From contig JAPOKN010000004.1 of assembly GCA_029977605.1 (NCBI GenBank), positions 1-46,068 on the forward strand: a stretch of DNA of 46,068 nt, given 5' to 3'. The first letter of the stretch is position 1; each line of letters begins with the position of its first letter. A program made the position numbers and the translations under genes. Below the pieces are notes generated by a model. That model was not told the DNA's origin, searched no databases, and saw only the letters and a program-made list of their open reading frames with translations. Source of the DNA: Methanobacteriota archaeon (lineage in GTDB: Archaea; Thermoplasmatota; Poseidoniia; MGIII; CG-Epi1). Below are positions 8,001 to 30,156 of the stretch, one piece after another.

Positions 8001-11000
8001 GCACAAATATCAGATGATGGTGGAAGTACTTGGTCTATGATAACACCTATCGGCGGTTATCCAAATAATATCTACAATTACGCATACTACGGAAACCCAT
8101 TGCGCGGTCAACCAGCATACACATACTATGGATCTAGTACAGGTTTCACCAGTTCACCAGATTCAAATAAGTATATTGATGTAAAATTCAACCTTGATGC
8201 ATACACCGGTCAAGATGACATTATGTTTAGATGGGTTGCAGGATGGTCATCTATACCAACAGGATATGGATTCTATAATTCATTCTTGAGATTTGATGAC
8301 TTTGCAGTAACTGGTCTTGTGTACAACGATAACGTAGGAGTAAGTGCTTTAGAGCTTCCAGATCCAATTGGAATTGATGAGACTATTGCATTATCTACTA
8401 CAGTCATTAATGCAGGAATCAATAACCAAACAGCTGGAGCAGCTAAAGTAAGATTGCAATTAGGACCTATGGGTCTTGCAACTTACGATACTAGTGATGA
8501 CATAGAGTATACCTCTGTTTCAGAAGCTGCAGCAGCCGGTTGGAGTATGACAGATAAAGTATGTAATACTACATACGGAACATGTACTTCATGGGGAAGT
8601 CCAGCAGGTTTCACAATTGTCGCTGATGATGATACAACCGCATTAGGTCCAGAGGATGGAGAATTCGAGATGTACTACAGCGGTGGAAGTACAGAAACTA
8701 CTACACCTACCTTGAACTTCGCAGATGCTGAAAGTGATCTGAAATTAACCTTGAAACACAGATATAATTTCGATTATTATTCTGGCATGAGTACTGCATA
8801 CAATGGTGGACAAGTCTTGATTTCTACAGATGATGGAGACAATTGGGAATTATTCACACCTGAAGGCGGATATCCAGGAACAATGTACAATTATGCATAT
8901 TATGCAAATCCATTGTACAACCAAGCTGGATTCGTTCACTGTGGTGACTGTTCAGGAGTAAGTGGAACTGCTTCAGATAATGAAGACAAGTACATTGAAA
9001 CAGTATTCGACATGGCAGACTACGTTGGTGAAACAGAAGTCAAACTTAAGTTCCAAGTAGGAATGTATCGATATCAGTATCCAGGTGATGGAGAACACTG
9101 GTACATTGATTCATTAGCATTTACTGGAACTGGTATGGAGTCTGTAGCCTTTGAAGAAATTGTAGCAATTTCCGGAGCTGCAGGACCATTTGTTAGCGGT
9201 GAAAAATTCGAATATTCAAAAGATTACCACTTCCAAGTTCCAGGTGAATACAAAATCGAGTTCACTACTTGGATTGGATCAGATCCTTCAGCAGGAGATG
9301 ATTTTACAGGAGATAATACTGCAGCTGCAACACGTGAGACTATGTTTACCATAGCTGGAACAACAGCAGATGCAGATGCAACCTCTAACAAGAATGATGA
9401 ATTGAATAGAATGTATTACGAAGACGATTGGACATCAGCCAAGGATGGAGGTCCTCAGGACGGACATCAATGGAGAACAGATTCAACATCAAGTTCACCT
9501 GATTCACCAGTATGGTGGGTCGGACCTGATGCATATGGTTCTTCATACAATGGAGATGATGTAAGTCTAATGTCACCAGTAATTGATCTTTCACAAGCTA
9601 CCTCAGCAAAATTAGTGTTTGATCACGTTTTCTCATTCTACGCAAGTATTGGAAACTACAACTATTATTATGATGGTGGTAGAGTAGAAATTAGTACTAA
9701 TGGTGGAAGCACTTGGTCAGCCTTACCTGTCACATCAGGTCAAGGATATGGTGGATCTGTTTACAACTACGCATACTACGGTAACCCTCTAAGAGGTCAG
9801 CAAGCTTTCGTTGCATCTTCTTCAGCAGGTAATAGCATGGTAGAGACACAATGTAGTTTGAATGATTACACTGGCGAAGGTTTCGACAATGTAAGACTCA
9901 GATTCAGATACGGTGGAGCTTTCCCTAACTGGGGAAGTACTTGGAGCATTGACAATGTTGGTATCTACGGACTTGGTTTCGATTTGAAACAAACTAGTTC
10001 ATCTGTACCTTACACATTAGAAGTCGGTGAATCCAGTACAATAACTACCTCGTTTATTAACCAAGGTAAAGGAGACCTAGGTGCCGGTGGCGCAATGTCT
10101 GAAGCTTATGCATACGCATATGTTAACGACATGAGCGGTAACGAGCTATGGTCTTCATCCAGCTCATTGGGTAACTTAGACATGGCATATTATGATGAAA
10201 ACGGAAACACATTTGCTGGAGAATCTACTCCAACAATTAGTTTCGATTTCCCAGGTATGTCCAATGCAGGTATGTACACAGCAGGTGTAATGGTTGCAGA
10301 CTCTAATGGAGACATGTTGTCAGATTTATTCTCAGCAAACAATGATGCAAATCATATGTTGTTAGTAGGTCTTGGAGCTGACATGGGTTCACCAATGCTA
10401 GCAGGCGGATCTAACTGGGGCGCAGCTTCAGATGTTCCATCAGATGTTGGTGCAGGTGCTCTTGGAGTCGCTTGGGATGAAACAGGCGTTGCAACAGGAA
10501 CATTAGACATAGATATTGCAAGTCAAGGAACAGGATTTGTCCCTGAATCACCTACAGTTCAAATTGGAACAACTGTGAAATGGACTAATTCAGATACCAT
10601 GACTCATACTGTAACTGATAAAGCATCAGAGTTTGATTCATTCGATATCGCACCAGGTAGTTCCTTTGAATTAACGTTCAATGAAATAGGAGTGTTCACT
10701 TACTACTGTAAATACCATCCAATGATGGAAGGTACAATTACAGTAACATCTGACAATAGTGCAGATGAGCAAGCAAGAACAAACTACATCAATGTCTGGT
10801 CTGCAGAATCATACTTGTTCTTCTGGGCTAAGTATGACCTTTCTGATGATAGTGCAATATCTGTATATGCACAAAAGAAAGGCTCAGACATAGATGATGC
10901 AGGAACACTAGCTCTTTGGGGAGCTAATGGATTCAAGATAATGGATGGTTCAGATCATTCAGAAGTCGGAGATTCTTTAACTGGAGATAGCGGCTGGAAC

Positions 11001-12146
11001 CCATATTATATCTATTTAGATTCTAATAAATTGGGTTACAACAGTTTAGCATATGATCCAGAAGAAGATAATTCCTATGCATTTGTCTTCAGAGCACGTG
11101 GTGTAGAAGGTACAGCTGAGATTGGAAACGTACAAGTTGTGAGAACACAAGATACAGGTTTCTTCTTCGCTAAAGATAATCCAAATAAGCTAACTTATGA
11201 AATATTCCCAAGTTTAGCTGTAGAAATGGATTATTTCGCTAAGAACATAGGTACAGAAGACAATGAGTTCCAATTCACTCCTCACTTGGTTGCACAAGGT
11301 AAGGATTACATGGGAGCTGCATTCACAATAACAGTACAAGTGTTAGTTAATGGAGTAGAAGATAATGATGTATCTTCAACATCAGACGGTAATGGAACTT
11401 ACACATATGGAGTAGAAATGGCTCCAGATGATGAAGCATTAATTACTGTAAGATTCTTAGCTCCAGACTTTGACTCTGAGAAAGGTGAACCTGCAGGAAA
11501 CCGCAAATTCGATGTGAAAATGGATCCTACTGACACAGGTAGTGATGAAGAAATGAGAGAGCCAACTTCGGCAACCTTGTTCATTAAGCCATCACAATTT
11601 GTTCTAGGCGATATGTCATACGACAGAGCAGGAGTTCTTGAAGGCGATTCATTAGCAATCACTGTAAAAGCATGGAACGAAGGAAACTACGCTTCAGATG
11701 TCTTAATGGTGGTCTATGTAATTGATTCAACTGGAGATGCATACAACACACCAGACGGTGTAAAACGTATGACTAGAGTAGCTTCAACTACAGAACCAGT
11801 AATGGCACCAAAACCAGTTCTTGAGTCACAAGGAATCTATCAGACATGGTACCCAATAACAGCAGTTTGGGAAGAAGCATTCATACCAGGTGAAACAACT
11901 CAGGATTTCACAAATGTTGAGTTATACGCAATGATTAATCCAGATCCAGAGCAACAAGACGTTGACAATGGTTACAAGAAACAAGACGAATACTTGAACC
12001 AAAAAGACGACAATGATGCGTTCGGACAGATTGCAGTTGTTAAAGACAAATCATCTACTCCATCTTTCGCACTTGGAATAGTAGGTATGTCAGTAGCAGC
12101 ATTAATTGCAGCAGCTGGTGCTTCTCTAAGAAGAGAAGAAGAATAA
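5022..12146 (+). CDS. Giant secreted cell-surface protein (2374 aa): putative propeller region, four Asp-box-containing jelly-roll repeats, Ig/CARDB-like linkers, cupredoxin domain, C-terminal sorting signal
   Basis: Signal peptide ending ASA; four S-x-[DN]-[GD]-G-x-[NT]-W motifs each followed by [GA]NPL; HTVT...YYCKYHPMM; tail TPSF-TM-RREEE. Confidence 0.85.
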   Translation: MQETYKIEKRDWAATLMAVVVVVTMVTSTFVLFAPEASARTGSDSYGYSFKDSAETDGPTYDWTDIVSSGTKLLGSTTDGAQGPFNIGFDFEFYETSYDKFYNGGDNGYITFGGAVSNAWTPYALPATQLGQNAIVAGWFDGGFCTSRNPNSGVYYETVGDEGSRQLIIQMQDQVYWSARDGSSYCNSGSAWATNTITWQILLNEGSNSIVLQYKDATGGSFYDNEYLTSGIQGVVDGTQYGLQYKYRSTPSSTIADETAVKFVAPPPKRNDLKLSATTIPQPISLAEDNILGATVTNNGVNCDTAGDCTPVPETDVDVTASIFSVKETVTEFDFDDRSNAEGWTHSGIGGASSKWTQALNDGVGNYNYGEEGTDDGSWSSGRKSTTFSGLFSDNQRIHYDGTDILVADDGSNSVKKIDTTDNSVTTILGPDLTNLRNVLDVTSDEDYYYTLARASSTYSSTTRICKWDRDDGAMVGSCSTAGKYGTALTIYEDADELFLLQTSSSSTYRKIVGFSTSNLATNGKSISYGSGVSSYYYSQDIDADENTGDVYISYREYNGRMRAYERATDGSYCASTSCYTQVYTGARYPISMEVHDNYAYIMGYYYSSWYGGIKKMPTNSLSSITTVISSFTQGTYKGSLAITDSEDIYVSSNYAYSYYNFLNYQDAVYYFESGSTSGTATTTIGPAPTYLAALSSPAMDLSDAVGLEMSFKISYNFYFRYEGAYLEVSTDGGNNWEYISNDKLSGKKYYGTTYTTWGNPLVTSRDAWTYYDTDGRYSSYSNTENWKETTATLDEYTGYDDVRLRFVVGYNTYSMSYYNAFFRVDDVSFTALEADETFATETQTIDSLDFKASESVSFFATNKFKPSAEGLQVGDTVGISINVPGNANDEDKTNQRVVVFREVKYVIFSDDFEGGDKGWTDGKVQYGTSDWAVRSISASSGANSMDSGYRNSNPVPSDTYVSTPALDLGLPVEAELQMKIAYYGYYTYDGYQAQISDDGGSTWSMITPIGGYPNNIYNYAYYGNPLRGQPAYTYYGSSTGFTSSPDSNKYIDVKFNLDAYTGQDDIMFRWVAGWSSIPTGYGFYNSFLRFDDFAVTGLVYNDNVGVSALELPDPIGIDETIALSTTVINAGINNQTAGAAKVRLQLGPMGLATYDTSDDIEYTSVSEAAAAGWSMTDKVCNTTYGTCTSWGSPAGFTIVADDDTTALGPEDGEFEMYYSGGSTETTTPTLNFADAESDLKLTLKHRYNFDYYSGMSTAYNGGQVLISTDDGDNWELFTPEGGYPGTMYNYAYYANPLYNQAGFVHCGDCSGVSGTASDNEDKYIETVFDMADYVGETEVKLKFQVGMYRYQYPGDGEHWYIDSLAFTGTGMESVAFEEIVAISGAAGPFVSGEKFEYSKDYHFQVPGEYKIEFTTWIGSDPSAGDDFTGDNTAAATRETMFTIAGTTADADATSNKNDELNRMYYEDDWTSAKDGGPQDGHQWRTDSTSSSPDSPVWWVGPDAYGSSYNGDDVSLMSPVIDLSQATSAKLVFDHVFSFYASIGNYNYYYDGGRVEISTNGGSTWSALPVTSGQGYGGSVYNYAYYGNPLRGQQAFVASSSAGNSMVETQCSLNDYTGEGFDNVRLRFRYGGAFPNWGSTWSIDNVGIYGLGFDLKQTSSSVPYTLEVGESSTITTSFINQGKGDLGAGGAMSEAYAYAYVNDMSGNELWSSSSSLGNLDMAYYDENGNTFAGESTPTISFDFPGMSNAGMYTAGVMVADSNGDMLSDLFSANNDANHMLLVGLGADMGSPMLAGGSNWGAASDVPSDVGAGALGVAWDETGVATGTLDIDIASQGTGFVPESPTVQIGTTVKWTNSDTMTHTVTDKASEFDSFDIAPGSSFELTFNEIGVFTYYCKYHPMMEGTITVTSDNSADEQARTNYINVWSAESYLFFWAKYDLSDDSAISVYAQKKGSDIDDAGTLALWGANGFKIMDGSDHSEVGDSLTGDSGWNPYYIYLDSNKLGYNSLAYDPEEDNSYAFVFRARGVEGTAEIGNVQVVRTQDTGFFFAKDNPNKLTYEIFPSLAVEMDYFAKNIGTEDNEFQFTPHLVAQGKDYMGAAFTITVQVLVNGVEDNDVSSTSDGNGTYTYGVEMAPDDEALITVRFLAPDFDSEKGEPAGNRKFDVKMDPTDTGSDEEMREPTSATLFIKPSQFVLGDMSYDRAGVLEGDSLAITVKAWNEGNYASDVLMVVYVIDSTGDAYNTPDGVKRMTRVASTTEPVMAPKPVLESQGIYQTWYPITAVWEEAFIPGETTQDFTNVELYAMINPDPEQQDVDNGYKKQDEYLNQKDDNDAFGQIAVVKDKSSTPSFALGIVGMSVAALIAAAGASLRREEE

Positions 12147-17261: not shown

Positions 17262-17744
17262 TCAGATAAGATTAAAATAGTCGAAAAGAAGTATGGCAAG
17301 CAAGGTTTGAAACCCTGCAGCAATGTCATCCAATAAAATTCCATGGCCTCCATGGAGTTTTTCTAAATTTCTTGCAGGCCATAATTTTGCTACATCAAAA
17401 ATACGGAATAAGATAAATGATAAAAACCAAATATGATTTTCCATTGAAAATTGAATAAGACTCAATGAAGCAATTATAATAAGATATCCAATAACTTCAT
17501 CTAGGACATATATTCCAGGATCGCCTCCATACTTTTTTTCAGCCCAAGGTGCTAATATTAAGCCAAAGTAGTACATTATAGGAATTAATGTTAGTAAAGC
17601 ATATCCTGCATTGCTTTCAAGATAATTAGTTAGTAAGAATCCTAGTACAACACCGCCTAAAGTTCCAAATGTCCCAGGAGCAATAGGAGCCCTTCCTAAA
17701 AAGAAGAAAGACAGATAAATTTCTTTGAATAACTCTTTATTCAT
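17262..17744 (-). CDS. pgpA: Phosphatidylglycerophosphatase A
   Basis: APGTFGT, DPG..VLDE, FRIFD..K.WP, GILLDD. ATG 17744 overlaps the upstream stop. Confidence 0.9.
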   Translation of the reverse strand: MNKELFKEIYLSFFFLGRAPIAPGTFGTLGGVVLGFLLTNYLESNAGYALLTLIPIMYYFGLILAPWAEKKYGGDPGIYVLDEVIGYLIIIASLSLIQFSMENHIWFLSFILFRIFDVAKLWPARNLEKLHGGHGILLDDIAAGFQTLLAILLFDYFNLI

Positions 17745-18366
17745 TTTTAGCCTCAACCCAAAAATGGTTCATTCTTTGTATGGCAGTTAGATTTCCTAAT
17801 ATTGCCAGCACGGCAACTACGATGGTAACGATAGTCTCGACATCTCCCATTAATTCACCAATCAACAATCCCATTCCTAAAATAAACCACCTTTCGGGCC
17901 TTTCAATTAATCCAATACCTTCTTGTGAAACACCTAGTCTTTCGGCAGCTGCGCGACAGTATGATGTTTGAAATGCTCCAATCATTGCAGCCATTGCCCA
18001 CATTTGTCCAGAAATAAACTCAAGGCTTTCAATAGGCAAAGGATTTACCCAATCGCAAAGAATTAGGGCACTAAAAGCGATACAATCAGCATATCTATCT
18101 AAAGTCGCATCTAAGTATCCGCCTCTTACAGAACTGGTTTTTGTCGCTCTTGCAACTAATCCATCTGCACCGTCGAAAAGAGATGCAATCATCCCTACCA
18201 AAAAAGCGTAATAAATATTTTGATCGTATAATAGCAATGCAGCATACATAGTCAAAGCAACTCCAGAAATTGTAATATGATTCGGTTTGATGCCGAATTT
18301 ACCAAGTCCTTTGGCCAGCGGATCAAACAGCTTTCCAGCAGCAGTTTTCAGAGTTTTACTAAGCAT
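17737..18366 (-). CDS. CDP-alcohol phosphatidyltransferase (PgsA / archaetidyl-glycerophosphate or -inositol-phosphate synthase type)
   Basis: PNHIT, DGADGLVAR-x8-G-x3-D-x3-D, SYCRA, GLIERPER. Start moved to ATG 18366. Confidence 0.88.
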   Translation of the reverse strand: MLSKTLKTAAGKLFDPLAKGLGKFGIKPNHITISGVALTMYAALLLYDQNIYYAFLVGMIASLFDGADGLVARATKTSSVRGGYLDATLDRYADCIAFSALILCDWVNPLPIESLEFISGQMWAMAAMIGAFQTSYCRAAAERLGVSQEGIGLIERPERWFILGMGLLIGELMGDVETIVTIVVAVLAILGNLTAIQRMNHFWVEAKNE

Positions 18367-18425
18367 GGAAGTAAAATGACATGGGAGAGGCTCTTTTAGT
18401 CCCTTGTCCAATGAGCAAATAGCTT

Positions 18426-19388: not shown

Positions 19389-19450
19389 CTGAATAGTCAG
19401 CTTTATATCATATGCTCGAGGTTTACAAATTCCTAGAGGCGTATTTAGTT

Positions 19451-20341
19451 ATGAGTCAAAAGAAATCTAGACAACAAAAAAAGCCAAAATCAGAAATTAA
19501 ATTGGCTGAAGAACGTTTTCAAAGTTGTGTAGTGAAAAGAAATAATTTCAATGACGAAGCCCGCTCCCTCCGGGATGAGCGAAATGCTTTACATGATCAA
19601 AGAGGAAAGATTATGGAAGAAATTATGAAGCATAGGGAAGAAATGAAATCAAATACTTCCGCTAAAGCTAAACATCAGAAGGTAAGAAATACTGCACAGG
19701 AAAAAGCTAAACAACTAATTTCAATAAAGCAACAGAAGCGAGGAAACAAAAAAGGTGGAAAGTCTCTTACCGATACAGTTCAGGCATTACATTCAGAAAT
19801 TCTTAATTTAGAAAGAAGAAGAGAAACTACGGAAATGCCAATTTCTAAAGAGAGAGAAGTAATGGAAAAGTTAGGAATATTGAGGAGAAGTTTGGGAGAG
19901 CAAGAGAGCGAACTTGCAACTCAAGAGCATTTAAATTTAGAAGTATCTGAATTAGATGCAGAAATAGATTCAGAATTTTCTAAGGCTAATGATGAGCATA
20001 GTGAAGTTATAGTTCTGGCCAAGCTCAATAAAAAAATATACAAAAAGGTTAGTAACCTTATGAAAGAAGCTTCCCATTTATCTACAGAAGCAGATAAAAA
20101 GCATAAAGAATTTGTAAATGTTCGTAAGAAAGCTGACAACCAACATTCTAAGGCTATGGAAATGCTAGAAGCATTAAAATTGCACAGAAAAACGGCTAAT
20201 GAAGAAAGACAAGCCAGATGGAAAGTAGTTAAAGACCATAGAAAGAACATAAAGGATGAGTTGTATAATCCTAAAAAATTAGAATCTGCAGCAGATGATG
20301 CCTTACAGCAATTAATGTCTGGCGGTAAAATAAACCTTTAA
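19451..20341 (+). CDS. Archaeal coiled-coil protein (COG1340-like)
   Basis: K/E-rich heptads along the whole length, with a GGKINL-type C-terminus. Start likely ATG 19451. Confidence 0.7.
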   Translation: MSQKKSRQQKKPKSEIKLAEERFQSCVVKRNNFNDEARSLRDERNALHDQRGKIMEEIMKHREEMKSNTSAKAKHQKVRNTAQEKAKQLISIKQQKRGNKKGGKSLTDTVQALHSEILNLERRRETTEMPISKEREVMEKLGILRRSLGEQESELATQEHLNLEVSELDAEIDSEFSKANDEHSEVIVLAKLNKKIYKKVSNLMKEASHLSTEADKKHKEFVNVRKKADNQHSKAMEMLEALKLHRKTANEERQARWKVVKDHRKNIKDELYNPKKLESAADDALQQLMSGGKINL

Positions 20342-21075
20342 TGGACGCTATAATCCTCGCAGGTGGTTTTGCTAAGAGAATGTGGCCATTAACCAAGAAT
20401 AAACCTAAGCAACTTCTTAATCTTGCGGGGAAACCAATGCTTGATTATGTTTTTGATTCTTTAGATAATCTTGATTTTGAAAGAATTATTGTTTCAGTAA
20501 ATAGTTTTTTTGCACCTCAATTTCAAGAGTATTTATTGTCTAATTCTAAAGATAAGAAAATTGAATTATTTATTGAAGAAAGCACTAATGAAAACGAAAA
20601 ATTAGGCGCTTTAGGCGCTTTAAATCTTTTATTCAAAAAGAAAAAATTGGTAGGTCCAGTTTTCATAGCTGGAGGCGATAATTTGTCAGATTTTGATTTA
20701 ATAAAAATGATAGACCTGTACGAAAAATCGAATTCGGATGTTATTGGTTTATTTGATGTTGAAAATATAGAATTAGCAAAATTATATGGTATAGCTAACC
20801 TAGAGGGGAACAGGATCATTGATTTTGTTGAAAAACCTTCCTCTCCTCCATCGACGTTGGCAGCAACTGCTTATTGGCTACTTTCAGAATCAGGGATAAA
20901 TAATTTTTTTACGTACATAGAAGGCGGAGGAGATAGAGATGCAATGGGTAATTTTTTAACTTGGAACGTTAAACGCAATCCAGTATTGTCAGTATCATTT
21001 AAGGGAAGTTGGTATGATATTGGTGGTTTAGAATCTTATTCAGAGGCGCAGAATTGGTTAGAAAAAAGACCTTAG
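20341..21075 (+). CDS. Sugar-phosphate nucleotidyltransferase (single NTP_transferase domain)
   Basis: AIILAGG.A.R.WPLT...PK.L, GDN, FVEKP, WYDIG. Confidence 0.9.
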   Translation: MDAIILAGGFAKRMWPLTKNKPKQLLNLAGKPMLDYVFDSLDNLDFERIIVSVNSFFAPQFQEYLLSNSKDKKIELFIEESTNENEKLGALGALNLLFKKKKLVGPVFIAGGDNLSDFDLIKMIDLYEKSNSDVIGLFDVENIELAKLYGIANLEGNRIIDFVEKPSSPPSTLAATAYWLLSESGINNFFTYIEGGGDRDAMGNFLTWNVKRNPVLSVSFKGSWYDIGGLESYSEAQNWLEKRP

Positions 21076-21103: not shown

Positions 21104-22762
21104 GTGATGACTAGTGATTTATCTATACTTGCAGAAGTTCTTGTCATCAGTTCCTTAATTATTTTATCATTAGGATATTTTTTTTCAAGCAAGAACCATA
21201 TTATTTTTGGTAAGAAGTTTCCTGTAAAAATAGGTCACAATCTGAATATTATAGGTTGGTTACTTCTAGGTTTTTTTTGGTGGATACAAGTAGAGCATTA
21301 CATTTTAATAAATGATCCAGCAAATGGTTTTTTCTGTGCATTAGCGATGCCGTTTTTCGGTTACCTGGCAATACATGAATATCTAAGTATACGTTGGAAT
21401 GCTAACTATGAACCACTCAGATGGCTAGCTGCGATGACAGTTGTTGCTGGAGGAATTTATTTTTTCGTTGAGCGAGTCCCTATTCTCTCAGGTTGGTTAA
21501 TTCAAATAGTTGCTGAACAATCAATATGGATATTAAATTCATTTGATATTCCAACATCTTTAGGTAATTTAGATTACGGTGATGGATCAAAATATTACAG
21601 GCCAGCTTCCAATCATGAAGAAGTTCAAATCGCCATTGAAGGTGATGAATGGCGTAATCCTGATTCAGTATCACTTACTATTGTATTAGCATGTACGGCT
21701 TTACAAAGTATGATAATATTTGTGGGCGGAGTTGTTTGTACTAAGGCTCCTGCAGATAGAAGATTTTATGCATTTCTTGCTACAGTCCCTGCAATTTATC
21801 TTTTAAATTTAATAAGAAATGCAGTTGTTATTTGGTTAACATATGAGCACATATGGGGGGATGAAACTTTTTTCTATGCTCACAGCGTTTTAGGGAAAGT
21901 TGGGAGTTTAATTGCCCTGGTATTTCTAGCAATAGCAGTATTTCACTTTTTGCCAGAAATGCAGGATTCCATATTAGGTGTAATTGATTTACCTCTTAGA
22001 AAGGCTCCGGATGGCTTACGAGGACTTCCTTTTGCTAAAGGTATGCCTTCCCAAGTAGCATATCTCTTAGTTACTGGCCTAGTATTATTTCCATTTGGTT
22101 TCTTTTCAAAATCAGTTGAAGAGCAAGGTTTTGATTCAAATCTTCCTCTTGAAAGCATGTATACCTTATCAATAATCTTGTTATTAGTTTCTTTCTTTTT
22201 GTTGTATTTTTACCGAGACCCTGAAAGAAAAATTGAAGCTGGAATTGTTAGTCCTGCTGATGGTCTTGTACAAAGAGCAGAAATAAAGAGTGGAATGGTC
22301 CGCCTATCTATCTTTATGAATGTACATAATGTTCATGTAAACAGGTCTCCTTTTGATGGGAAAATTTTGTCTATTAAACATAAATCTGGAGGTTACCTTC
22401 CAGCTTTTCACAAGGATTCAGATAGGAACGAACGTCTGATGACTAAGATAGAAACCTCAATTGGTGTAATGAAGGTAATTCAGATAGCTGGAGTTTTAGT
22501 TAGACGAATTGTTAGTTACGTTAAACCAGATACAGAAGTTACTAAGGGGGAAAGAATAGGCTTAATCCATTTCGGTTCTAGAGTTGATCTATCATTTGAA
22601 TCTGCAGGAATAGATATTTTAGTTAAAAAGGGAGACAGAGTATTGGCCGGACAACAATTAGCAGAATATACACCAATGTCTTCATTATCAGTTACTGAAA
22701 AGTTATTTGAGGCACCTAAGCGTATTCTGTCAAAATTACAGGCTTCCCAAAGTGATGAGTGA
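21104..22762 (+). CDS. artA-psd: Fusion of archaeosortase A (aa ~1-300) and phosphatidyl/archaetidylserine decarboxylase proenzyme (aa ~308-525)
   Basis: N half is multi-TM with IVLAC197TALQS, NLIR238N and FFYAH260..GK. C half has FYRDPER, SPADG, IFMNVHNVHVNRSP, NER, QIAG..VRRI and the FG/S492RVD self-cleavage site. One uninterrupted frame. Confidence 0.9.
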   Translation: MMTSDLSILAEVLVISSLIILSLGYFFSSKNHIIFGKKFPVKIGHNLNIIGWLLLGFFWWIQVEHYILINDPANGFFCALAMPFFGYLAIHEYLSIRWNANYEPLRWLAAMTVVAGGIYFFVERVPILSGWLIQIVAEQSIWILNSFDIPTSLGNLDYGDGSKYYRPASNHEEVQIAIEGDEWRNPDSVSLTIVLACTALQSMIIFVGGVVCTKAPADRRFYAFLATVPAIYLLNLIRNAVVIWLTYEHIWGDETFFYAHSVLGKVGSLIALVFLAIAVFHFLPEMQDSILGVIDLPLRKAPDGLRGLPFAKGMPSQVAYLLVTGLVLFPFGFFSKSVEEQGFDSNLPLESMYTLSIILLLVSFFLLYFYRDPERKIEAGIVSPADGLVQRAEIKSGMVRLSIFMNVHNVHVNRSPFDGKILSIKHKSGGYLPAFHKDSDRNERLMTKIETSIGVMKVIQIAGVLVRRIVSYVKPDTEVTKGERIGLIHFGSRVDLSFESAGIDILVKKGDRVLAGQQLAEYTPMSSLSVTEKLFEAPKRILSKLQASQSDE

Positions 22763-22765
22763 ATT

Positions 22766-23557
22766 ATGATTAATTTAAAAAAAGTATTTAGGCCATTAAC
22801 TTTGATTTCTTACGCAGATATGGCAACTTTACTAAGTGCTACTTTGGGTTTTTTAGCAATAACATACATGATTGATGGCAACGAGAAAAGTTACATTGTA
22901 GCTATGTTAATATTGCCATTTTGTGCGATTATTGACGGAATGGATGGTGCATTGGCTAGAAAATTTGGTACTAAACATCATTATGGAAAATACCTTGATT
23001 CAATTTCAGATTCAATATGTTTTGGAATCGCTCCGTCCATTTTGGTTTATTCCTTGTATTATAATTTAGATAAAGGCCCAGCAATAGATATTTTTGATGA
23101 TAACTTTGAGGTAAACTTAAGGTATAATATAGATAATATAATTGCAATTTCTTCAGCCTTATTAATCGCAATTTTAAGTATAATCAGATTAGCTAATTTT
23201 ACTATAGGTGATCAGGGTAGTAACGAATATTTTTCAGGTCTACCTTCCCCTGGGTTAACTATGTTTATAGTTGTAATTTCAATAAAGTATTCACAGATTA
23301 ATGATTATAATAATATACTAATTCCCTTATCAATTGGTTTGGTTTCACTACTAACTGCATCAACTATACCCTATGCTAAAGCTAGAAAACAATTTAAGTT
23401 TCCTATACTTTTTGGATTAATTGTACTGATAATAACAATAGTTCTTAGATATTTAGAACAAGCGTTTTGGCTCACAATATGGCCTTTAGCCTTACTTTTG
23501 TACTTAGTCTATTTTTTGCTTTTGCCGTTACTAATTTTAAACAGATATTTTGATTAG
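22766..23557 (+). CDS. pssA: CDP-diacylglycerol/CDP-archaeol--serine O-phosphatidyltransferase
   Basis: DGMDGALAR..G..LDSISDSICFGIAP, RLANF and FSGLPSP (PssA subclass II); 3 nt downstream of the psd fusion. Confidence 0.85.
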   Translation: MINLKKVFRPLTLISYADMATLLSATLGFLAITYMIDGNEKSYIVAMLILPFCAIIDGMDGALARKFGTKHHYGKYLDSISDSICFGIAPSILVYSLYYNLDKGPAIDIFDDNFEVNLRYNIDNIIAISSALLIAILSIIRLANFTIGDQGSNEYFSGLPSPGLTMFIVVISIKYSQINDYNNILIPLSIGLVSLLTASTIPYAKARKQFKFPILFGLIVLIITIVLRYLEQAFWLTIWPLALLLYLVYFLLLPLLILNRYFD

Positions 23558-26500
23558 TGTTTTCTTCTGTAAACAATTAGTGCTAGGAGCCCTACAACAG
23601 ATAAGAATGAAGGTCCAGGAAGTAAAGAGTCCTCGCCTTCAGATGCAGTTTCTTCAGATATAATATCTCCTTCGACTGTAACTGTTAGAGTAACTTGATC
23701 TAATATCTCGAAGACATACCCTCCACTTGAAGATTCACTTGCAGATAAAATATTCAGTGTGTATGTATAAGTTCCAGGCAAAACTTCCCTTGCAATAACT
23801 GCTAAAGCCCCCCAATCTAGCGTTTCACCGGCCTGAACTTTTAATGGATATAATTTAGTATCGGATGGAGAAATAGCTAATCTCCATTCTTTACTATTTT
23901 CATCAAAATAGAGATCAGTATCTTTAGTTCCATCTGGCATAATCAATTCAAGCGCCACATCTACATCCACAGTTCCTTTATTATCAATAATGAAGCCAGT
24001 AGATGCAGTTTGTATTTTAGAAGCTTCAATAGTGATTTCAAAATTTGCTGAATCTAGACATAGATTACTCAAATCAGCGAAGCAAAGAGAAACATCTTGA
24101 ATTTCTTCAATCGGAGTTTGTACGACTATGTTTGATATAGATTTTGCTAATTCATTACCATTATCATCAAAAATTAATATTTCTAATCGATATGTTGCAT
24201 CAGAAGTTCCTAATGGAACATTAATGGTTGCGCTTACAACTTTAGCTTCATCAACATCTAAATCAAATGTTGCAGGTTCTAACATAACCCAACTTCCAGC
24301 TTGACTTTCAGCAACTACTTCTATGGCCTGTTTTCCATTTCCGTCACTTAAAATATTGAATACGATGGTATCAGATTCACCGGGTGCGATTGTTCTTAAG
24401 CCAGATCCTTCTCTTCTTAGAGTTACACCGGTTTCTAATTCTTCTACTGAAACTCTGATTGTTTTATCATCTTTTGCAGTTTCGTCACCTCTTGATGTGG
24501 CTTCAACTTCAATATACACATTTCCATCATCTTGGTCATCAGGAATTGAAATTATTCCATTGACAGTAGCTTCACCATCTGCTCCAATAGTAATTCCGTT
24601 TTCTTCAAATTGGACCCATTCATTTTCATCACCTAAAACTTCAAGATCAAATGTATCGGTTTCATCTCCGTTATTGTATATTGTTACACTAAATTCTACA
24701 TCCTGTCCAGCTACAGATTCAGTGTTTGTTGGACTTACAGCTATTTCGACTTCATAGTTTGTAGGATTATCTGTCACATCTATAGTTAAATCTAAAGTTT
24801 CAGTAACGTCTCCGGCAGTCAGAATAATAGTTAGATCATACAAGTCATATTCAGCATCATCTGGTATTGTTATTTGTAGTTCTATATCTTTACTTTCATT
24901 ACTTTTCATTTCCATTTGATTTGTCATAGATCCCCAATCTTCAGCAGATCCAACCATATCAAGATAGAAGGTATCAGTTCCAGAAGCTCCGTTTTTGATA
25001 ACAATATTAAATTCTAATTTTGCACCAGGTTCACCTTCTTTATCTTGATTAAAAGTAGATATCTCAGGTAGATGAACCATTTCAACATCTAAATCAATTT
25101 CTTTATCATCATTTCTATGATTCTCGTCCTCTTTTGTAGTCTCTACAATAATTATGTATTCACCGGGATTATTACTTTCCCATTCCCATTCTAATGTTTC
25201 TTCTTCACCAGATTCTAATGGTCCTGTTATCTGTTGATTGCTAGTCCAGACTTCGTTCTCTTCAGAATCCAGAATAGTTGCTTTAACATCAATAGCGGCC
25301 TGAGTATCAGATCCATAATTTTTTATTATACTTGAAAACGAAATAGTTGAATTTTCTTTTGCGTCGCTCTCCAATTTGAGTACTTTAACTCCGACATCAT
25401 CTGCAGCTGCAGAGGCCCGTAACCAGTCGAGAGCCCTTCCTACCATGTCCTCACGATCGTTTGAAGTGTTAACCTTACCAAATGTAAAAGGAGAAACAAT
25501 TAATCTGTAATCACCATCATAATGTAAAGACATATTGAAAACCTGTGCAGCATCATCCCAGTTTTCCATTCCATCTTCCATATCGTCAGATAGATGACTT
25601 GTAGTTCCTCCGTTAGAAGTTAATTCAACATCATCAAAATACCAACCCTCATAGGCATCAATAACCCCATCTGCTCCAAATCTCCATTTTAATTTTACAT
25701 CTTCGCCTGAGAAATTTGTTAGATCAAATGTAGCTTGTACCCACCCTCCAGATTGTCCGTAGTAACCAGGTTCTCCATCTAAACCGCTAACTGACTGAGC
25801 AGGATATCCTCCATTAGGCTGTATAACTTCCCACGTTTCTCCTCCATCAGTTGTAATTTGTACGTTTCCTCCATCATAAGCATAGCTTTCACTCTCAGTA
25901 TCATAGTAGTGTTGGAATGATAGCTGGGGGCTGTTTCCAAGTGTGAATTCATCTGAAGTATAAACAGAGTAATCCCATCCATTACCATACTCTCCATCGC
26001 CTTTAGATTCATCCCCTATCCACATTGAATGAGTAGGGCTATTTGCTTTTCGATTTGGATCGCTAACAGTATCTACAATATGCCACCAATTACTTCTATC
26101 AGTATAAAATGCACCAATGGCTTCATCGTTAGGCCTTATCCAATCAGCATAGTCAGAGAAATATATGCTTGTATCTCCCATATTATATTCAGCGTCGCCA
26201 AATATCTCATCTCCGTCTACTCCAATTAGCGGATCGGGCGTTCCAACATTGTTTCTAATGTAATCAATTTTAAAATAATCATATTCAAAATCGCCGGCTT
26301 CTCTTGGCCCGTCACTTTCGTTTAATGCAGTTAAAAATTGTTGTCCCATAATCCAAAGGCTTCCGCCTTGATCCAAATATTCACTAATACATTCTTGCCA
26401 GTTAGTAGTATTTCTTTGATTATGATCGCCTTGAGTCCATATAACAACATCATAGTTACTCATCAAATCTAAAGTAGGATATGGCCCTAATTCACCGAAT

Positions 26501-29500
26501 GATCCCAGTTCACTGTCATAAGGCATGGTGTAAACATCGTAGCCTCTGCTTTCACCATCAGTAAAGTATTCCTGTAAAGCGAACTTTAGTCTATTATCTA
26601 TCTTATCTACATCGTAGTAGTTGTTATATCCATTATTTTTACCGAAGTTTGCATCAACTAATAGAACTTTATCTCCACCTTCTTGTGAATAATAGAATGG
26701 AGTTGCGGAGATGTCACTACTGTCTTCAGTTTCAGGATCATCTCTACTTGTTACAGTTACTGTAAAGGAATGTTCATTTCCAGTAGGTTCCAATGTAGGA
26801 GCAATTACAACTACAGTAAAGTTTTGACTTGAGCCTGAACTTAGATAAATAGAGCTTACATGAGAAATAATTTCCCAATCATCCTCTTGTTCAGAATCTA
26901 AACTTATGTCGTAATATCCACTATTTTCTCCAGTATTTGTGGCAGTAAAGTTGAATGCTACAGATTCACCAGATAGTACATCTTTTGCTTGTTCTTGTAC
27001 CGCTAAAGCAACATTATAGCCACTTTCGGCTATATCTATATTTTCTTCTTTTGGATTATTACCAGCTCTTTCATCTCCAGTTAATAATGTTTCGACTCTT
27101 ATTGTGTAGGTACCTTCAGGTCCACCTTCCCAGGTCCACTCTAATGTAGAATTATCTTTTGATTCAAGTGAATCAATAGTTTGAGTTTCGTTGTAAACTT
27201 CAGTACCATCGTCTCTCGTTACTGTGCCTCTTATATCAAAATCATCTTGATCATTTGTTCCAAAATTGTAGATTTCAGAAGTAAAAGTTACAGCTCTTCC
27301 TGGTTTAGCTGTGCTAGGCGAATCTAATTCTTTAGTTCCAACATCGTTAGGTATCGGTGGAAGACTATAAACTGCAAAATTATCAACATACAATCCTTCA
27401 AGTTGAGTGAAGGTATTAGATTCAAATCTAAGTCTGAATGAAACATCGTCCTCATACTCACTTACATCACTTTCAAAATAGAGCCACCCATTCTCGTCAG
27501 CTCCATCGTATTCGCTAGAGTAATCTCCATCATCGCCGGGTAAAGTTTCTAAAAGTTCCCACTCGCCGGATTGATTTATTTCTAAGTTGACAAAATCATT
27601 TGGACCGTCAATTGCAAACCATACCATTGCAGAAACATATTTTTCAGCACCATCTCCTATGTCAAACGTAGGTGATTCTAAAGAATCATTTAGTGAAGCA
27701 CTGTAAGTTTCAGTACTTGGATTTCCTAAATACCATGAATAATCTCCAGAATAGGATTTGTTGCTATAGTAATTCCACTCACTTTCAACAATGTCGGCCA
27801 TCCAATCTCCGTCGCCATCTTCAAAATCATCTTCAAAATGAGTTTCAGTTCCACTGTTAACTTCAATATTATCAATATACCATCCTTCATAGGCTTCTAC
27901 ACTTGCATCTGTTCCGAACCTAAATTTGAATCTTACATCTTGATTAGTATAGTTTGCAAGACTAAAGGATGCAGTTTCCCAATCAGCAGTATCTCCTTCC
28001 CCAGAAGTTCCAGTGTATCCTGGTTCATTATCCAATCCAACTACGGCATCATCAGGGTATCCGCCGTCAGGATTGATGACTTCCCAAGTTTCTCCGTCGT
28101 CAGTTGTAATTTGAACATTACCTCCATCCCAACTAAATTCAGTACTATACCAAATATCAACAGACATCTGTGGGTTAGTTTGACCAAGTGAAATCTCTTC
28201 ACTTGTATAAACAGAAAAATCCCAATTATTGTCATATTCACCATCTCCCTTAGATTCATCTCCAACCCACATCGCATGAGTTGGACTAGATGCTTCTCTG
28301 TTACTATCTTCGTCAGTATCGATTAAATGCCATGGATTGCTTAATGATTTGTAATTAGTCCACCCATTAACTCCGCTTTCCATGTCATCACTAAATTCAA
28401 CATCGACACTTCTCATCATTGAATCAATTATATCATTTTCTGGAACTTCATCATCATCATCTATGACTTTAGCTTCAAACCAAAAAGTTCCGTAATCATC
28501 AGTTTCCCATTCCCATGTAAGTGTTAAATCTTCACCTGGAGCTAAATCTTCAACATCTTTATTTCCTAAATTTTCAACAACGTTTCCTGCTCCATCATAG
28601 ATTTTACCACTAATTTCAGAATTCATAGTAACATCTCCACTATTTGTAACAATTACACTCATTTCTCTTTCTTCATCTTTCTCAGCGATCATTGGAGTAA
28701 CACGAGCATCTTTTACTTCTAAATCATACGTAACATAGGTATTAACTTTGATAATCTTTTCATTATTTTCCTCTTTTTCATCATTTGAAATTGTGGCCTT
28801 ACTTTTTATCTGATAAACATAGTCTTCATCATCTGGAGTATCCCATTCAAATTCAACAAAAGCACCAGTGCCTGAATCTAGTGAAATAGTTTCAGATTCA
28901 GTAAACGTGTACGAGCTATTCAAACATGTAATTTCTAACGAAACTTGAATACTATCTTGGTCTTCAGTACCTCTGTTTCTTACTGTAACATTTACAATGT
29001 TTTCAACGTTAGGTTCAACAGTCTCTTCATCTTTAGGCGTATTAAATCTGCTTAAACTTACATCATTTTCTAGTTGTTCAACAAGGTATTCAACAACGTT
29101 TTCCATAAATTCGTCCCTATCATCACTACTTGTAATAGAACTAAAATCAATAGTCATGAATACCAATTTGAATTCATCTTCAGTTCTTATGGTTGAAATA
29201 TTATAGTCTCCATTTGAACTTAAGACTTTTTCAAATCCGCTTCTAGGATTAATATCGTCTGCAAAATCTGAGCTTATCGCATCAGCATCGTATTCTATAC
29301 CATCAGAAATAGGATCATCGTCTTCACCATATACTACAGCAGGTGTTGCCCTGTCATTATCGGCATAACTAACGCCAAGATAATCGTGTTCAAAGTCACC
29401 AGCGCTACGATCACCGTCTGATGTATCAAAATCATACAAAATATCCATTCCTATAACCCACATAGCTCCTCCATCCTCTAGATATTCTGCGACATTTGAT

Positions 29501-30156
29501 TTGTCATTATCAGTAAAAGTTACATCAGTGTCTCCACTTTGGTAGTCAGTTCCACATACCCAAATAATCATTTGATACTCTGATAAAACATCTATTCCAG
29601 GAGCATCAGCACTACTATTGACTCTTACTATATCATATGCAATAGGATTAGTAAGGTTGTCAAGGGCATTGGCATAGTATGAGTCAGTTTCAGTCCTCGA
29701 ACCACCATTATTTCCGCTGTTATCATCGTCTAAAAGCAATATGGGCGGATATGAAACGGCAATATCTTCGGTTTCCTCATTATTATCCTCGTCAGATTCA
29801 GTAATTTGTTCTTCTTCATCAACAATTACTTTAATTTTGTGAGATCCTCCCACTGCAGTCCATTCAGTTTCAGCGTCTGCAGTATTTCCACCGGGAATAG
29901 TTATTGTTTCTTTAGCAATAAAGTTTCCATCATAGTAAAAGCTAACATTTGTAGTTACAGTAATTAGTCCACTAGTCCCCCCATCATTTGCGACCTCTGC
30001 GGTAATAGTTATCTCATCACCTCCTGTAGGTGAATCATCACTAAAACTTATCTCATTTATTGATAAGTCAGGATCATTTTCATCAGCTAATGTGTTCATA
30101 GCTGAAAGTGGTAGCATCAGCATGGCTAGCAAGAAAGCAGTTATTTTACGAGACAT
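23554..30156 (-). CDS. Giant acidic secreted surface protein (2200 aa): CARDB/Ig-like domains, two alpha/beta domains, Asp-box jelly-roll repeats, NEW3-like repeats, C-terminal sorting signal
   Basis: Signal peptide; CARDB pattern (PDL.I..I.FS...ESDEDNN); two copies of L..Y..[IV]IW..G...EYL..GG..W..G; repeated GGNVQITTD.GETW; N.G...DTF.L repeats; tail LLPGPSF-TM-RRKH. Confidence 0.85.
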   Translation of the reverse strand: MSRKITAFLLAMLMLPLSAMNTLADENDPDLSINEISFSDDSPTGGDEITITAEVANDGGTSGLITVTTNVSFYYDGNFIAKETITIPGGNTADAETEWTAVGGSHKIKVIVDEEEQITESDEDNNEETEDIAVSYPPILLLDDDNSGNNGGSRTETDSYYANALDNLTNPIAYDIVRVNSSADAPGIDVLSEYQMIIWVCGTDYQSGDTDVTFTDNDKSNVAEYLEDGGAMWVIGMDILYDFDTSDGDRSAGDFEHDYLGVSYADNDRATPAVVYGEDDDPISDGIEYDADAISSDFADDINPRSGFEKVLSSNGDYNISTIRTEDEFKLVFMTIDFSSITSSDDRDEFMENVVEYLVEQLENDVSLSRFNTPKDEETVEPNVENIVNVTVRNRGTEDQDSIQVSLEITCLNSSYTFTESETISLDSGTGAFVEFEWDTPDDEDYVYQIKSKATISNDEKEENNEKIIKVNTYVTYDLEVKDARVTPMIAEKDEEREMSVIVTNSGDVTMNSEISGKIYDGAGNVVENLGNKDVEDLAPGEDLTLTWEWETDDYGTFWFEAKVIDDDDEVPENDIIDSMMRSVDVEFSDDMESGVNGWTNYKSLSNPWHLIDTDEDSNREASSPTHAMWVGDESKGDGEYDNNWDFSVYTSEEISLGQTNPQMSVDIWYSTEFSWDGGNVQITTDDGETWEVINPDGGYPDDAVVGLDNEPGYTGTSGEGDTADWETASFSLANYTNQDVRFKFRFGTDASVEAYEGWYIDNIEVNSGTETHFEDDFEDGDGDWMADIVESEWNYYSNKSYSGDYSWYLGNPSTETYSASLNDSLESPTFDIGDGAEKYVSAMVWFAIDGPNDFVNLEINQSGEWELLETLPGDDGDYSSEYDGADENGWLYFESDVSEYEDDVSFRLRFESNTFTQLEGLYVDNFAVYSLPPIPNDVGTKELDSPSTAKPGRAVTFTSEIYNFGTNDQDDFDIRGTVTRDDGTEVYNETQTIDSLESKDNSTLEWTWEGGPEGTYTIRVETLLTGDERAGNNPKEENIDIAESGYNVALAVQEQAKDVLSGESVAFNFTATNTGENSGYYDISLDSEQEDDWEIISHVSSIYLSSGSSQNFTVVVIAPTLEPTGNEHSFTVTVTSRDDPETEDSSDISATPFYYSQEGGDKVLLVDANFGKNNGYNNYYDVDKIDNRLKFALQEYFTDGESRGYDVYTMPYDSELGSFGELGPYPTLDLMSNYDVVIWTQGDHNQRNTTNWQECISEYLDQGGSLWIMGQQFLTALNESDGPREAGDFEYDYFKIDYIRNNVGTPDPLIGVDGDEIFGDAEYNMGDTSIYFSDYADWIRPNDEAIGAFYTDRSNWWHIVDTVSDPNRKANSPTHSMWIGDESKGDGEYGNGWDYSVYTSDEFTLGNSPQLSFQHYYDTESESYAYDGGNVQITTDGGETWEVIQPNGGYPAQSVSGLDGEPGYYGQSGGWVQATFDLTNFSGEDVKLKWRFGADGVIDAYEGWYFDDVELTSNGGTTSHLSDDMEDGMENWDDAAQVFNMSLHYDGDYRLIVSPFTFGKVNTSNDREDMVGRALDWLRASAAADDVGVKVLKLESDAKENSTISFSSIIKNYGSDTQAAIDVKATILDSEENEVWTSNQQITGPLESGEEETLEWEWESNNPGEYIIIVETTKEDENHRNDDKEIDLDVEMVHLPEISTFNQDKEGEPGAKLEFNIVIKNGASGTDTFYLDMVGSAEDWGSMTNQMEMKSNESKDIELQITIPDDAEYDLYDLTIILTAGDVTETLDLTIDVTDNPTNYEVEIAVSPTNTESVAGQDVEFSVTIYNNGDETDTFDLEVLGDENEWVQFEENGITIGADGEATVNGIISIPDDQDDGNVYIEVEATSRGDETAKDDKTIRVSVEELETGVTLRREGSGLRTIAPGESDTIVFNILSDGNGKQAIEVVAESQAGSWVMLEPATFDLDVDEAKVVSATINVPLGTSDATYRLEILIFDDNGNELAKSISNIVVQTPIEEIQDVSLCFADLSNLCLDSANFEITIEASKIQTASTGFIIDNKGTVDVDVALELIMPDGTKDTDLYFDENSKEWRLAISPSDTKLYPLKVQAGETLDWGALAVIAREVLPGTYTYTLNILSASESSSGGYVFEILDQVTLTVTVEGDIISEETASEGEDSLLPGPSFLSVVGLLALIVYRRKH

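Follow-up and report, generated by a model that had tools for sequence, protein, structure and literature searches.

We identified in the window, the whole stretch of 46,068 nucleotides analyzed here (positions 1 to 46,068 of contig JAPOKN010000004.1, assembly GCA_029977605.1, from a Methanobacteriota archaeon placed in Thermoplasmatota, Poseidoniia, MGIII, CG-Epi1), a gene that encodes an archaeosortase A (ArtA) and a phosphatidylserine decarboxylase (Psd; PssD where it is a separate protein) in one polypeptide. Comparison of this gene with contigs, genomes and protein clusters from other sources confirmed that the ArtA-Psd fusion is a genuine, conserved single protein and not an artefact of assembly. 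The gene is one stop-free frame of 552 amino acids (aa), and the motifs that an earlier, sequence-only reading of the window had placed in it are found at the residues it named, in the list of open reading frames (ORFs), in the translation and in the sequence itself. Its parts are as follows (HMM, hidden Markov model; TM1, first transmembrane helix):

21104..22762, + strand: artA-pssD fusion gene, 552 aa from GTG (551 aa from the ATG at 21107), stop codon TGA at 22760-22762
21233..21985, + strand: archaeosortase A domain, aa 44-294 by HMM, with TM1 (aa 3-27) upstream; C197, R238, H260
21986..22048, + strand: junction linker, aa 295-315 (DLPLRKAPDGLRGLPFAKGMP), whose AKGMP lines up with the N-terminal end of the sister family's separate PssD
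22049..22210, + strand: two transmembrane helices of the Psd half, aa 316-333 and 349-369
22157..22660, + strand: phosphatidyl/archaetidylserine decarboxylase catalytic domain, aa 352-519; D386, H411, and the G491-S492 site
22577..22759, + strand: predicted pyruvoyl alpha chain, aa 492-552 (61 aa), with an amphipathic helix (aa 530-550) at its end, from the conserved GS motif and the model

The GTG is followed directly by an ATG as second codon, and this ATG is probably the true start, since the database homologues of the fusion protein are 551 aa long (range 551-552 aa). In the ArtA half, C197 lies within IVLACTALQS (codon tgt at 21692-21694, read from the translation and the sequence), R238 sits in NLIRN, and H260 is the third ArtA catalytic residue. 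In the Psd half, SPADG occupies aa 383-387 and HVNRSP aa 411-416, and the putative cleavage site runs from F490-G491 to S492-RVD, with the S492 codon at 22577-22579. The linker sequence that the sequence-only reading had named, LPLRKAPDGLRGLP, is present as it was given, and M314 is encoded by the ATG at 22043.

Contigs from two DNA runs of two other studies, neither of them flagged as a possible source of the window, bridge the junction with no gaps (X15 record 2, covering 21936-23557, and X16 record 4, covering 21881-23377), so the junction holds neither a stop nor a frameshift. A protein search found 185 relatives, of which the best 120 are all 455-581 aa long, reach down to 68% identity and come from several sources; 115 of these 120 clusters carry both Pfam domains. 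Some of the relatives are named "archaeosortase A" or "phosphatidylserine decarboxylase", and they are attributed to Marine Group III, Poseidoniales or Thermoplasmatota. We also searched 45 genomes of the order. The genus of the window has a complete single frame of 552-587 aa in 27 of 32 genomes (31 relatives and the window's own); among the other five, the gene is interrupted by a run of N in one and is a contig-edge fragment in another, and three gave no match (these are 70-76% complete). A second genus, of high guanine-cytosine (GC) content and sharing 52-57% identity with the fusion, has complete frames of 524-526 aa in seven of nine genomes, the remaining two being cut by contig ends. 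Thus the relatives do not always keep the two genes separate, in line with the sequence-only reading. Two genomes of the window's genus hold an extra partial match to the Psd half beside a complete fused gene (G003:C2:49642-50091, 87% identity, and G015:C112:11-649, 66% identity); these pieces are probably co-binned fragments from other strains.

A codon alignment of 12 genomes of the genus contains no indels within the gene. In windows over the linker, amino-acid identity is 0.78-0.97 and synonymous differences are 0.38-0.52, compared with a gene-wide mean of 0.43 (standard deviation 0.08). Because the amino acids are conserved while the synonymous sites vary normally, the linker is read as protein in the frame of the fusion; and because synonymous sites ahead of M314 vary as they do elsewhere, no conserved nucleotide signal is visible there. 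The region is also represented in RNA data: 11 pieces from the X18 metatranscriptome (which may contain DNA), 90-99% identical to the window, cover parts of pssA, of the upstream nucleotidyltransferase gene and of both halves of the fusion (90-95% identity there), with only the end of Psd being reached; three pieces from the X19 metatranscriptome all lie outside the fusion.

The N-terminal half scored as an archaeosortase, as the sequence-only reading had held: TIGR04125 (archaeosortase A) gave 141.4 bits (cut-off 75; aa 44-294, model positions 22-260 of 271), and 142.9 bits for the fusion ORF in the whole-genome search, and TIGR04178, the exosortase/archaeosortase signature, gave 66.1 bits (cut-off 23; aa 192-285). 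Other sortase subfamilies scored much weaker on this half (heimdallarchaeosortase, 41; ArtH, 26.9; ArtB, 24.3). In the C-terminal half, NF003685 (phosphatidylserine decarboxylase) gave 193.6 bits (cut-off 183; aa 352-519) and PF02666 gave 134 bits (cut-off 22; aa 365-520); several sibling Psd models stayed under their cut-offs (for example NF003683, 206.4 vs 244; TIGR00164, archaetidylserine decarboxylase, 156.8 vs 230). Of the models that the sequence-only reading had expected on one protein, TIGR04125 and PF02666 are both there; PF09721 was not returned for the fusion protein by a Pfam scan at E ≤ 0.01, and is nonetheless part of the precomputed Pfam annotation of the 115 two-domain homologues mentioned above. 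The genome of the window (1.09 Mb in 64 contigs, a metagenome-type assembly, 87.6% complete) gave one match each for ArtA and Psd, and the two lie in the fusion ORF.

Both halves have intact catalytic residues, as shown by an alignment of 86 rows (alignment A1) in which 48 ArtA rows and 56 Psd rows were scored for conservation. The ArtA residues C197, T198, N235, R238, and H260 are each kept in 48 of 48 rows; in the Psd rows D386 is kept in 55 of 56, H411 in 56, G491 in 54, and S492 in 56, so that the Gly-Ser self-cleavage site and the Asp and His residues of a decarboxylase are in place. An AlphaFold2 model built on this alignment had a mean predicted local distance difference test score (pLDDT) of 92.0 and a predicted template modelling score (pTM) of 0.89. 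Foldseek placed chains of the Escherichia coli PSD at ranks 1-8 for the C-terminal half (E-values of 2.8e-4 to 3.3e-3, probability 1.00, target TM-scores of 0.39-0.41; the top match, 7cny_C, had an E-value of 2.8e-4 and a target TM-score of 0.41), found no credible match for the ArtA half, and returned chance matches beyond rank 9. PHMMER against PDB sequences gave no match to the fusion protein at E ≤ 0.01. Since neither search gave one, no solved archaeosortase or exosortase structure was found in the PDB copy searched, and a confident model is now at hand for this enzyme family. A complex prediction for the separate ArtA and PssD of a sister-family genome (G002) gave scores of 0.00 and 0.00 against a mark of 0.32, which tells nothing about binding either way.

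In the sister family, which belongs to the same order, artA, pssD, and pssA are separate genes whose stops and starts overlap. At the N-terminus of the PssD of this family, ..ARGTP.. lines up with ..AKGMP.. of the fusion, and the ArtA of the family ends in a long acidic tail. Since the separate genes overlap and the PssD N-terminus aligns, the fusion amounts to the loss of the artA stop together with the acidic tail. This tail is a low-complexity stretch of about 110 aa at the C-terminus in two sister-family proteins, L015 (G002:C69, 2161-3612, reverse strand) and L016 (G001:C48, 221-1669, forward strand); in the ArtA of G001, the Cys and Arg helices are also separated by an insert of about 70 aa that holds an additional hydrophobic segment. 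The window's family came out as a clade in a quick maximum-likelihood tree of the ArtA part (support of 100 in the Shimodaira-Hasegawa-like approximate likelihood ratio test), and the unfused sister family is placed next to it (99).

In the rest of the class, the Marine-Group-II-type families, the ArtA frames stand alone and are about 280-470 aa long, mostly 307-370 aa, with 30-37% identity (among the matches listed). Five further families have separate, tightly packed artA and pssD genes, in that order, at all eight loci inspected; pssA comes next at six of them, and at the other two none was found in the stored stretch. Among 150 listed of the 308 matches, an ArtA match lies directly upstream of a Psd match on the same strand in at least 19 further genomes of three families, and in one genome the ArtA and Psd matches are on different contigs. 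To judge from these gene arrangements, separate and packed artA and pssD, usually followed by pssA, is the common state in Thermoplasmatota. Psd matches within frames of 520-780 aa were considered as further fusions and rejected: the six loci are stop-free artefacts of high GC content lying over separate artA, pssD, and pssA genes.

A search of 1.84 billion cluster representatives returned 4697 hits, and the best 150 hold two full-length proteins with both domains, P0121 and P0125, and three fragments. P0121 represents the second fused genus. P0125, of 444 aa and 42% identity, belongs to another family of Thermoplasmatota (f21), in which all three sampled genomes have single frames of 444-447 aa (L028-L030; G328:C37, G318:C69, and G336:C98). 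This type of fusion is compact, without the large outer loop of ArtA, and its context is unrelated: it is flanked by EF-1-alpha and a GTPase-like gene, with no adjacent pssA. A search of the genome contigs seeded with P0125 gave 49 pattern matches and no confirmed relatives. In the ArtA tree, P0125 is placed outside the window's clade, among the stand-alone ArtAs, on a branch of length 2.07; because this branch is long, the independence of the P0125 fusion is likely, not proven. Apparently, then, a second fusion of the same two partners in the same order arose independently in another family. A further ArtA fusion architecture was seen in three archaeosortase A homologues of 578-604 aa (P0149, P0183, and P0226), which have about 300 extra N-terminal residues, comprising a pair of membrane helices and a pentapeptide-repeat domain with many N-x-S/T sequons.

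One genus nested in the fused clade (sister to P0121, support 91) is unfused. Its ArtA, of 302 aa, retains the ancestral neighbours upstream, and the protein ends precisely where the junction would be, with ...DLTKRKKPDNIK (loci compared: L017, G034:C18, 2003-2911, reverse strand; L027, G035:C41, 3375-3602, forward strand). A Psd match was obtained in one genome of this genus, where it is a 277-aa ORF at another place, followed by pssA (L018, G035:C38, 1889-2722, forward strand); the second genome (79% complete) has ArtA alone and gave no Psd match. The 277-aa ORF begins with about 30 residues that match TM1 of the fused proteins and continues directly with NLPFAKGMP.... Compared with P0087, a fusion of the window's genus, its Psd half is 79.8% identical (194 of 243 positions) and its N-terminus 73% (22 of 30); compared with the ArtA N-terminus of its own genus, the identity is 33%. 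The ArtA core of the split genus shares 60-65% identity with all fused ArtAs of the family. Because it joins the TM1 of a fusion to a Psd half at such identity, the 277-aa ORF must derive from a fused gene by an in-frame deletion; lateral acquisition is one possible origin, and a mis-binned contig is another. Whichever origin it has, a natural Psd-only version that still bears the first helix of the fusion exists. Two other candidates for fission were rejected, G041 because the gene is cut by a contig end and G014 because it is interrupted by a run of N.

The genes around the fusion in the window are the following:

19412-20341, + strand: DUF7121 protein
20341-21075, + strand: sugar-phosphate nucleotidyltransferase
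22766..23557, + strand: pssA-like CDP-alcohol phosphatidyltransferase (CDP, cytidine diphosphate), 263 aa, starting 4 nt past the fusion stop
23554..30156, - strand: convergent surface protein, 2200 aa, with four CARDB and two InhA-like MAM stretches and the tail ...LLPGPSFLSVVGLLALIVYRRKH; candidate ArtA substrate

The pssA-like gene matched PF01066 (49.4 bits, cut-off 22); its best NCBIfam model was archaetidylserine synthase NF038087 (93.9 bits vs a cut-off of 240), and TIGR00473 gave 88 (vs 107), the serine-type synthases still being the top-scoring models. The genome of the window has three PF01066 genes in total; the second CDP-alcohol phosphatidyltransferase (52 bits) is at 17737-18411 on the reverse strand, 3 kb upstream of the operon, and the third is on contig C31. 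The tail of the 2200-aa neighbour resembles PGF-CTERM and is of the PGPSF type. The second fused genus has the same arrangement, including pssA and a giant convergent protein with the tail ...LPAPSLLAVLLLLGGVALRRRR. An ad hoc tail pattern found seven PGF-type tails among 1073 frames of at least 120 aa, four of them with a literal PGF, and one more in the window at the end of ORF 5022-12146. This giant ORF (forward strand, 2374 aa from its ATG) contains cupredoxin-like and BNR/Reelin-like stretches, and its tail ...STPSFALGIVGMSVAALIAAAGASLRREEE resembles a variant C-terminal sorting signal, with an acidic end. The pair of DUF7121 and nucleotidyltransferase genes precedes artA also in the second fused genus and in the split genus, and the nucleotidyltransferase has a weak AglF-like score; this group, together with artA, may be a surface-biogenesis neighbourhood.

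We predicted the membrane topology from the helix boundaries of the model and the loop charges over 18 fused sequences, following the positive-inside rule. Eight long helices are modelled in aa 3-282, and the loops are placed as follows:

Loop aa 28-42: mean net charge +3.0, 18 of 18 rows, inside
Loop aa 62-73: mean net charge -1.6, 17 of 18 rows, outside
Loop aa 147-192: mean net charge -4.9, 18 of 18 rows, outside
Loop aa 212-220: mean net charge +2.4, 18 of 18 rows, inside
Loop aa 247-255: mean net charge -2.8, 18 of 18 rows, outside
Loop aa 334-350: mean net charge -2.1, 16 of 18 rows, outside

C197 is at the start of helix 195-211, R238 in the outer part of helix 217-248, and H260 at the start of helix 252-282. 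According to this model, the fusion protein would have nine membrane spans, with the N-terminus outside, C197, R238, and H260 at the outer leaflet, the linker inside, and then two further spans leading to a cytoplasmic Psd domain; the same two helices of the Psd half occur in the separate PssD proteins of the sister family. The ArtA of Haloferax volcanii is predicted to have seven membrane spans. Substrates of the Sec pathway are processed outside the cell, and CDP-archaeol and serine are cytoplasmic, with which the predicted topology agrees. Because the two active sites would face opposite sides of the membrane, a direct hand-over of the lipid would be impossible unless the membrane body of the protein aids its crossing of the bilayer.

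In H. volcanii, ArtA-dependent cleavage and lipidation of PGF-CTERM proteins needs both PssA and PssD, and all three proteins are found together at midcell; for the chemistry, a thioester on the catalytic Cys has been proposed that is resolved by the amine of archaetidylethanolamine to form an amide (PMC7157517). The sequence-only reading had given these proteins as separate and both lipid enzymes as needed, and this agrees with that study. For the fusion in the window, we consider the following pathway, origin, and co-localising effect, taken as a whole, to be likely. PssA from the adjoining gene would convert CDP-archaeol and serine to archaetidylserine. The Psd half would cut itself between G491 and S492, leaving ArtA plus the beta chain (aa 1-491) with the 61-aa pyruvoyl alpha chain bound, and the active decarboxylase would turn archaetidylserine into archaetidylethanolamine at the inner leaflet. 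The lipid would then reach the outer leaflet, where ArtA would cleave the C-terminal PGF-type signal of secreted surface proteins via a C197 thioester, and the ethanolamine amine would resolve this thioester to give a protein amide-linked to the lipid. The fusion arose in one Marine-Group-III-like family, when an artA-pssD-pssA operon in which the genes were overlapping from before lost the artA stop and the acidic tail of ArtA, and its effect would be to give the two enzymes the same location and a 1:1 ratio, not to pass lipid between them. The fusion, its conservation, the intact catalytic residues, the operon context and the evolutionary origin are shown by the sequence comparisons; we infer the topology, the lipid species, self-cleavage, the chemistry of transamidation, and that co-localisation is of benefit. 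Most economically, the fusion would make permanent the co-localisation that the separate H. volcanii proteins display and fix their ratio at 1:1.

Several observations weigh against this explanation. The Psd half misses the cut-off of NF038088, the "protein sorting system archaetidylserine decarboxylase" (anchor_synt_D; 176.7 bits vs 240), so it is not filed as a member; the fusion itself argues that this half works like the NF038088 enzymes despite the sub-threshold score. The pssA-like gene likewise scores 75.6 bits against a cut-off of 200 on the "protein sorting system" model NF038086. On the substrate side, the PGF-CTERM model TIGR04126 has no match on the tail of the neighbouring 2200-aa protein, and its three matches genome-wide are all below the cut-off of 24.5 (21.7, 19.3, and 13.8 bits); because the curated model gives sub-threshold matches only, PGF-type substrates are plausible, not certified. 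The topology is ambiguous over aa 95-146, where the pattern closes only if either helix 103-124 or helix 126-146 does not cross the membrane (the lowest hydrophobicity, 0.94, is that of 126-146). None of the RNA contigs of X18 and X19 lies over 21961-22500, so that the junction is uncovered in these data. Self-cleavage, lipid product, and anchoring are all predictions for the fusion protein. The Psd half is the sole Psd found in the genome, so it may be the housekeeping enzyme of the cell. Finally, because one genus has lost the fusion again and most of the phylum lacks it, any advantage that it brings is modest.

A near-neutral fusion is possible, though we hold it to be rather doubtful. By this account, a stop was lost between overlapping, co-translated genes in streamlined genomes, the two halves work independently, and the Psd is a general archaetidylethanolamine synthase that gains no kinetic or spatial benefit from its partner. 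The overlapping stops and starts of the ancestral genes, the small genomes of the genus (about 0.8-1.6 Mb), the single Psd found in the genome, the re-splitting in one genus with separate genes in most of the phylum, and the prediction of active sites on opposite membrane faces all agree with it. Against it, the fusion has been kept, with its linker conserved as protein, in two genera that are about 45% apart in sequence and differ strongly in GC content; the same partners were apparently fused a second time, in the same order, in another family; and separate artA and pssD genes stay adjacent across at least eight families, which implies selection for co-expression. A near-neutral origin is partly compatible with the explanation that we prefer. 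Strict substrate channelling, in which the Psd half would hand archaetidylethanolamine directly to the ArtA site within one protein, was raised by the sequence-only reading, and we find it unlikely. The two enzymes do form one polypeptide, whose pTM suggests a defined arrangement of the domains, and the authors of PMC7157517 speculate that the enzymes may form a complex that consumes the bulk of the lipid immediately. In all 18 fused proteins the loops that adjoin C197, R238, and H260 are predicted to be outside, with the Psd in the cytoplasm, so the head group would have to cross the bilayer; and no flippase-like feature was identified in the fusion protein, though no coordinates were at hand in which to look for a groove.

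The Psd half could also be made mainly as a separate protein from an internal start at M314 (ATG at 22043), the fusion being in effect two overlapping cistrons. All 12 genomes of the genus in the codon alignment have this residue, as do all 15 genus-type alignment rows; its aligned position is close to where the sister family's separate PssD begins, and AAAGG stands just ahead of the ATG. The same position is a Thr in both rows of the second fused genus, where P0121 has no Met anywhere in its linker, and a Gly in the second fused lineage; AAAGG is a Lys-Gly codon pair only 1-2 nt from the ATG; synonymous differences upstream of M314 (0.48-0.52, against the mean of 0.43) point to no constraint on a nucleotide signal; and the linker residues before M314 are conserved as protein, for which read-through translation is needed. 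We therefore regard an internal start as very unlikely to be the main source of Psd, and find no evidence that favours it. None of the four outcomes that the sequence-only reading had named as refuting the fusion was observed. That the frame is an artefact of assembly or binning, through a frameshift, a chimera, or a stop lost in one assembly, has no specific support beyond the metagenome-type source in 64 contigs, and its chance is negligible given the same frame in contigs of other studies, in the 27 of 32 and 7 of 9 genomes of the two genera, and in the best 120 of 185 database clusters. A bolder version of the preferred explanation would make ArtA and the decarboxylase a physical unit in every PGF-anchoring archaeon, with the fused protein acting as a trans-bilayer relay that combines synthesis at the inner leaflet, flipping, in which the nine-helix body guides the head group to the Cys site at the outer leaflet, and transamidation. 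We think this improbable; if it were true, an obligate complex would have left its mark on the genomes in two independent fusions of the same partners in the same order and in gene adjacency that is near-universal in the phylum.

The link between ArtA, PssA, and PssD has so far rested on the genetics and co-localisation of one haloarchaeon and on synteny in Methanosarcina. We know of no direct demonstration of the anchor chemistry. A natural fusion that is kept in two genera and was apparently invented twice is independent comparative evidence that ArtA and PssD cooperate, and the near-universal adjacency of artA and pssD in Thermoplasmatota strengthens the link; together, the fusion and the adjacency extend the PGF-type anchoring system to abundant, uncultured archaea of the marine plankton. 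The coupling that the sequence-only reading had proposed from the fusion, on the Rosetta-stone principle, is supported in part, in that the conserved fusion stands beside pssA and a candidate substrate; the fusion is not indispensable, with one genus re-split and most Thermoplasmatota keeping the genes separate, and synteny in Methanosarcina had earlier led others to infer the functional link, for which genetic proof also exists. Its channelling part fits poorly with active sites predicted on opposite membrane faces, a topology that sharpens the question of how the lipid nucleophile gets to an active site on the outer face. The gene also has practical value as a single gene that should complement two H. 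volcanii deletions, with S492A as a read-out of self-cleavage and with the natural split version for comparison.

No description of an ArtA-Psd fusion was found in the open full-text literature, a search that leaves out most subscription journals and supplements (e.g., Figure S1 of PMC7157517), which accords with the sequence-only reading, whose author knew of none; nor is the fusion mentioned in the available parts of PMC7157517, PMC8305020, and PMC9385802. The ArtA and PssA/PssD system is already known and the fused architecture exists in databases under generic names, and what appears to be new is its description, its spread, its origin, and its fission.

The operon in the window contains the same three enzyme families as H. 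volcanii, where the active-site residue of ArtA is Cys-173 (PMC7157517). In H. volcanii these are three separate proteins, whereas in the window a single polypeptide holds both ArtA and PssD, with pssA starting 4 nt further on; the Psd and PssA of the window score below the "protein sorting system" models NF038088 and NF038086, which are centred on haloarchaea. In Methanosarcina the three genes are linked as they are in the window, and this artA-pssA-pssD linkage first suggested the functional link, but each enzyme has its own gene there, with lengths of 834, 627, and 744 bp in M. acetivorans (PMC7157517). The order in Thermoplasmatota is artA, pssD, pssA, often with overlapping stops and starts and with a true fusion in two families, whereas Methanosarcina has artA-pssA-pssD. 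In Vibrio cholerae, rhombosortase removes a tripartite C-terminal signal (GlyGly-CTERM) and a moiety containing glycerophosphoethanolamine is attached, which makes it a non-homologous analogue of the chemistry proposed for ArtA (cited in PMC7157517). Rhombosortase is a bacterial rhomboid serine protease, and no fusion of it to an enzyme of lipid synthesis is known.

The E. coli PSD (PDB 7CNY, 7CNW, and 6L06) shares its fold, the Asp-His-Ser set and the Gly-Ser site with the C-terminal domain of the fusion. The Psd of the fusion differs from it in being of the short archaeal type, with two N-terminal membrane helices and 14-15% identity in the structural alignment, and its presumed substrate is the ether lipid archaetidylserine. 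D386, H411, and S492 of the fusion are the putative equivalents of D90, H147, and S254 in E. coli. The eukaryotic glycosylphosphatidylinositol (GPI) transamidase exchanges a C-terminal signal for an amide to a lipid-linked ethanolamine via an acyl intermediate on a Cys protease. It is built from proteins unrelated to the fusion; its ethanolamine is carried on a glycan, not directly on a phospholipid, and its reaction takes place in the lumen with a preassembled anchor.

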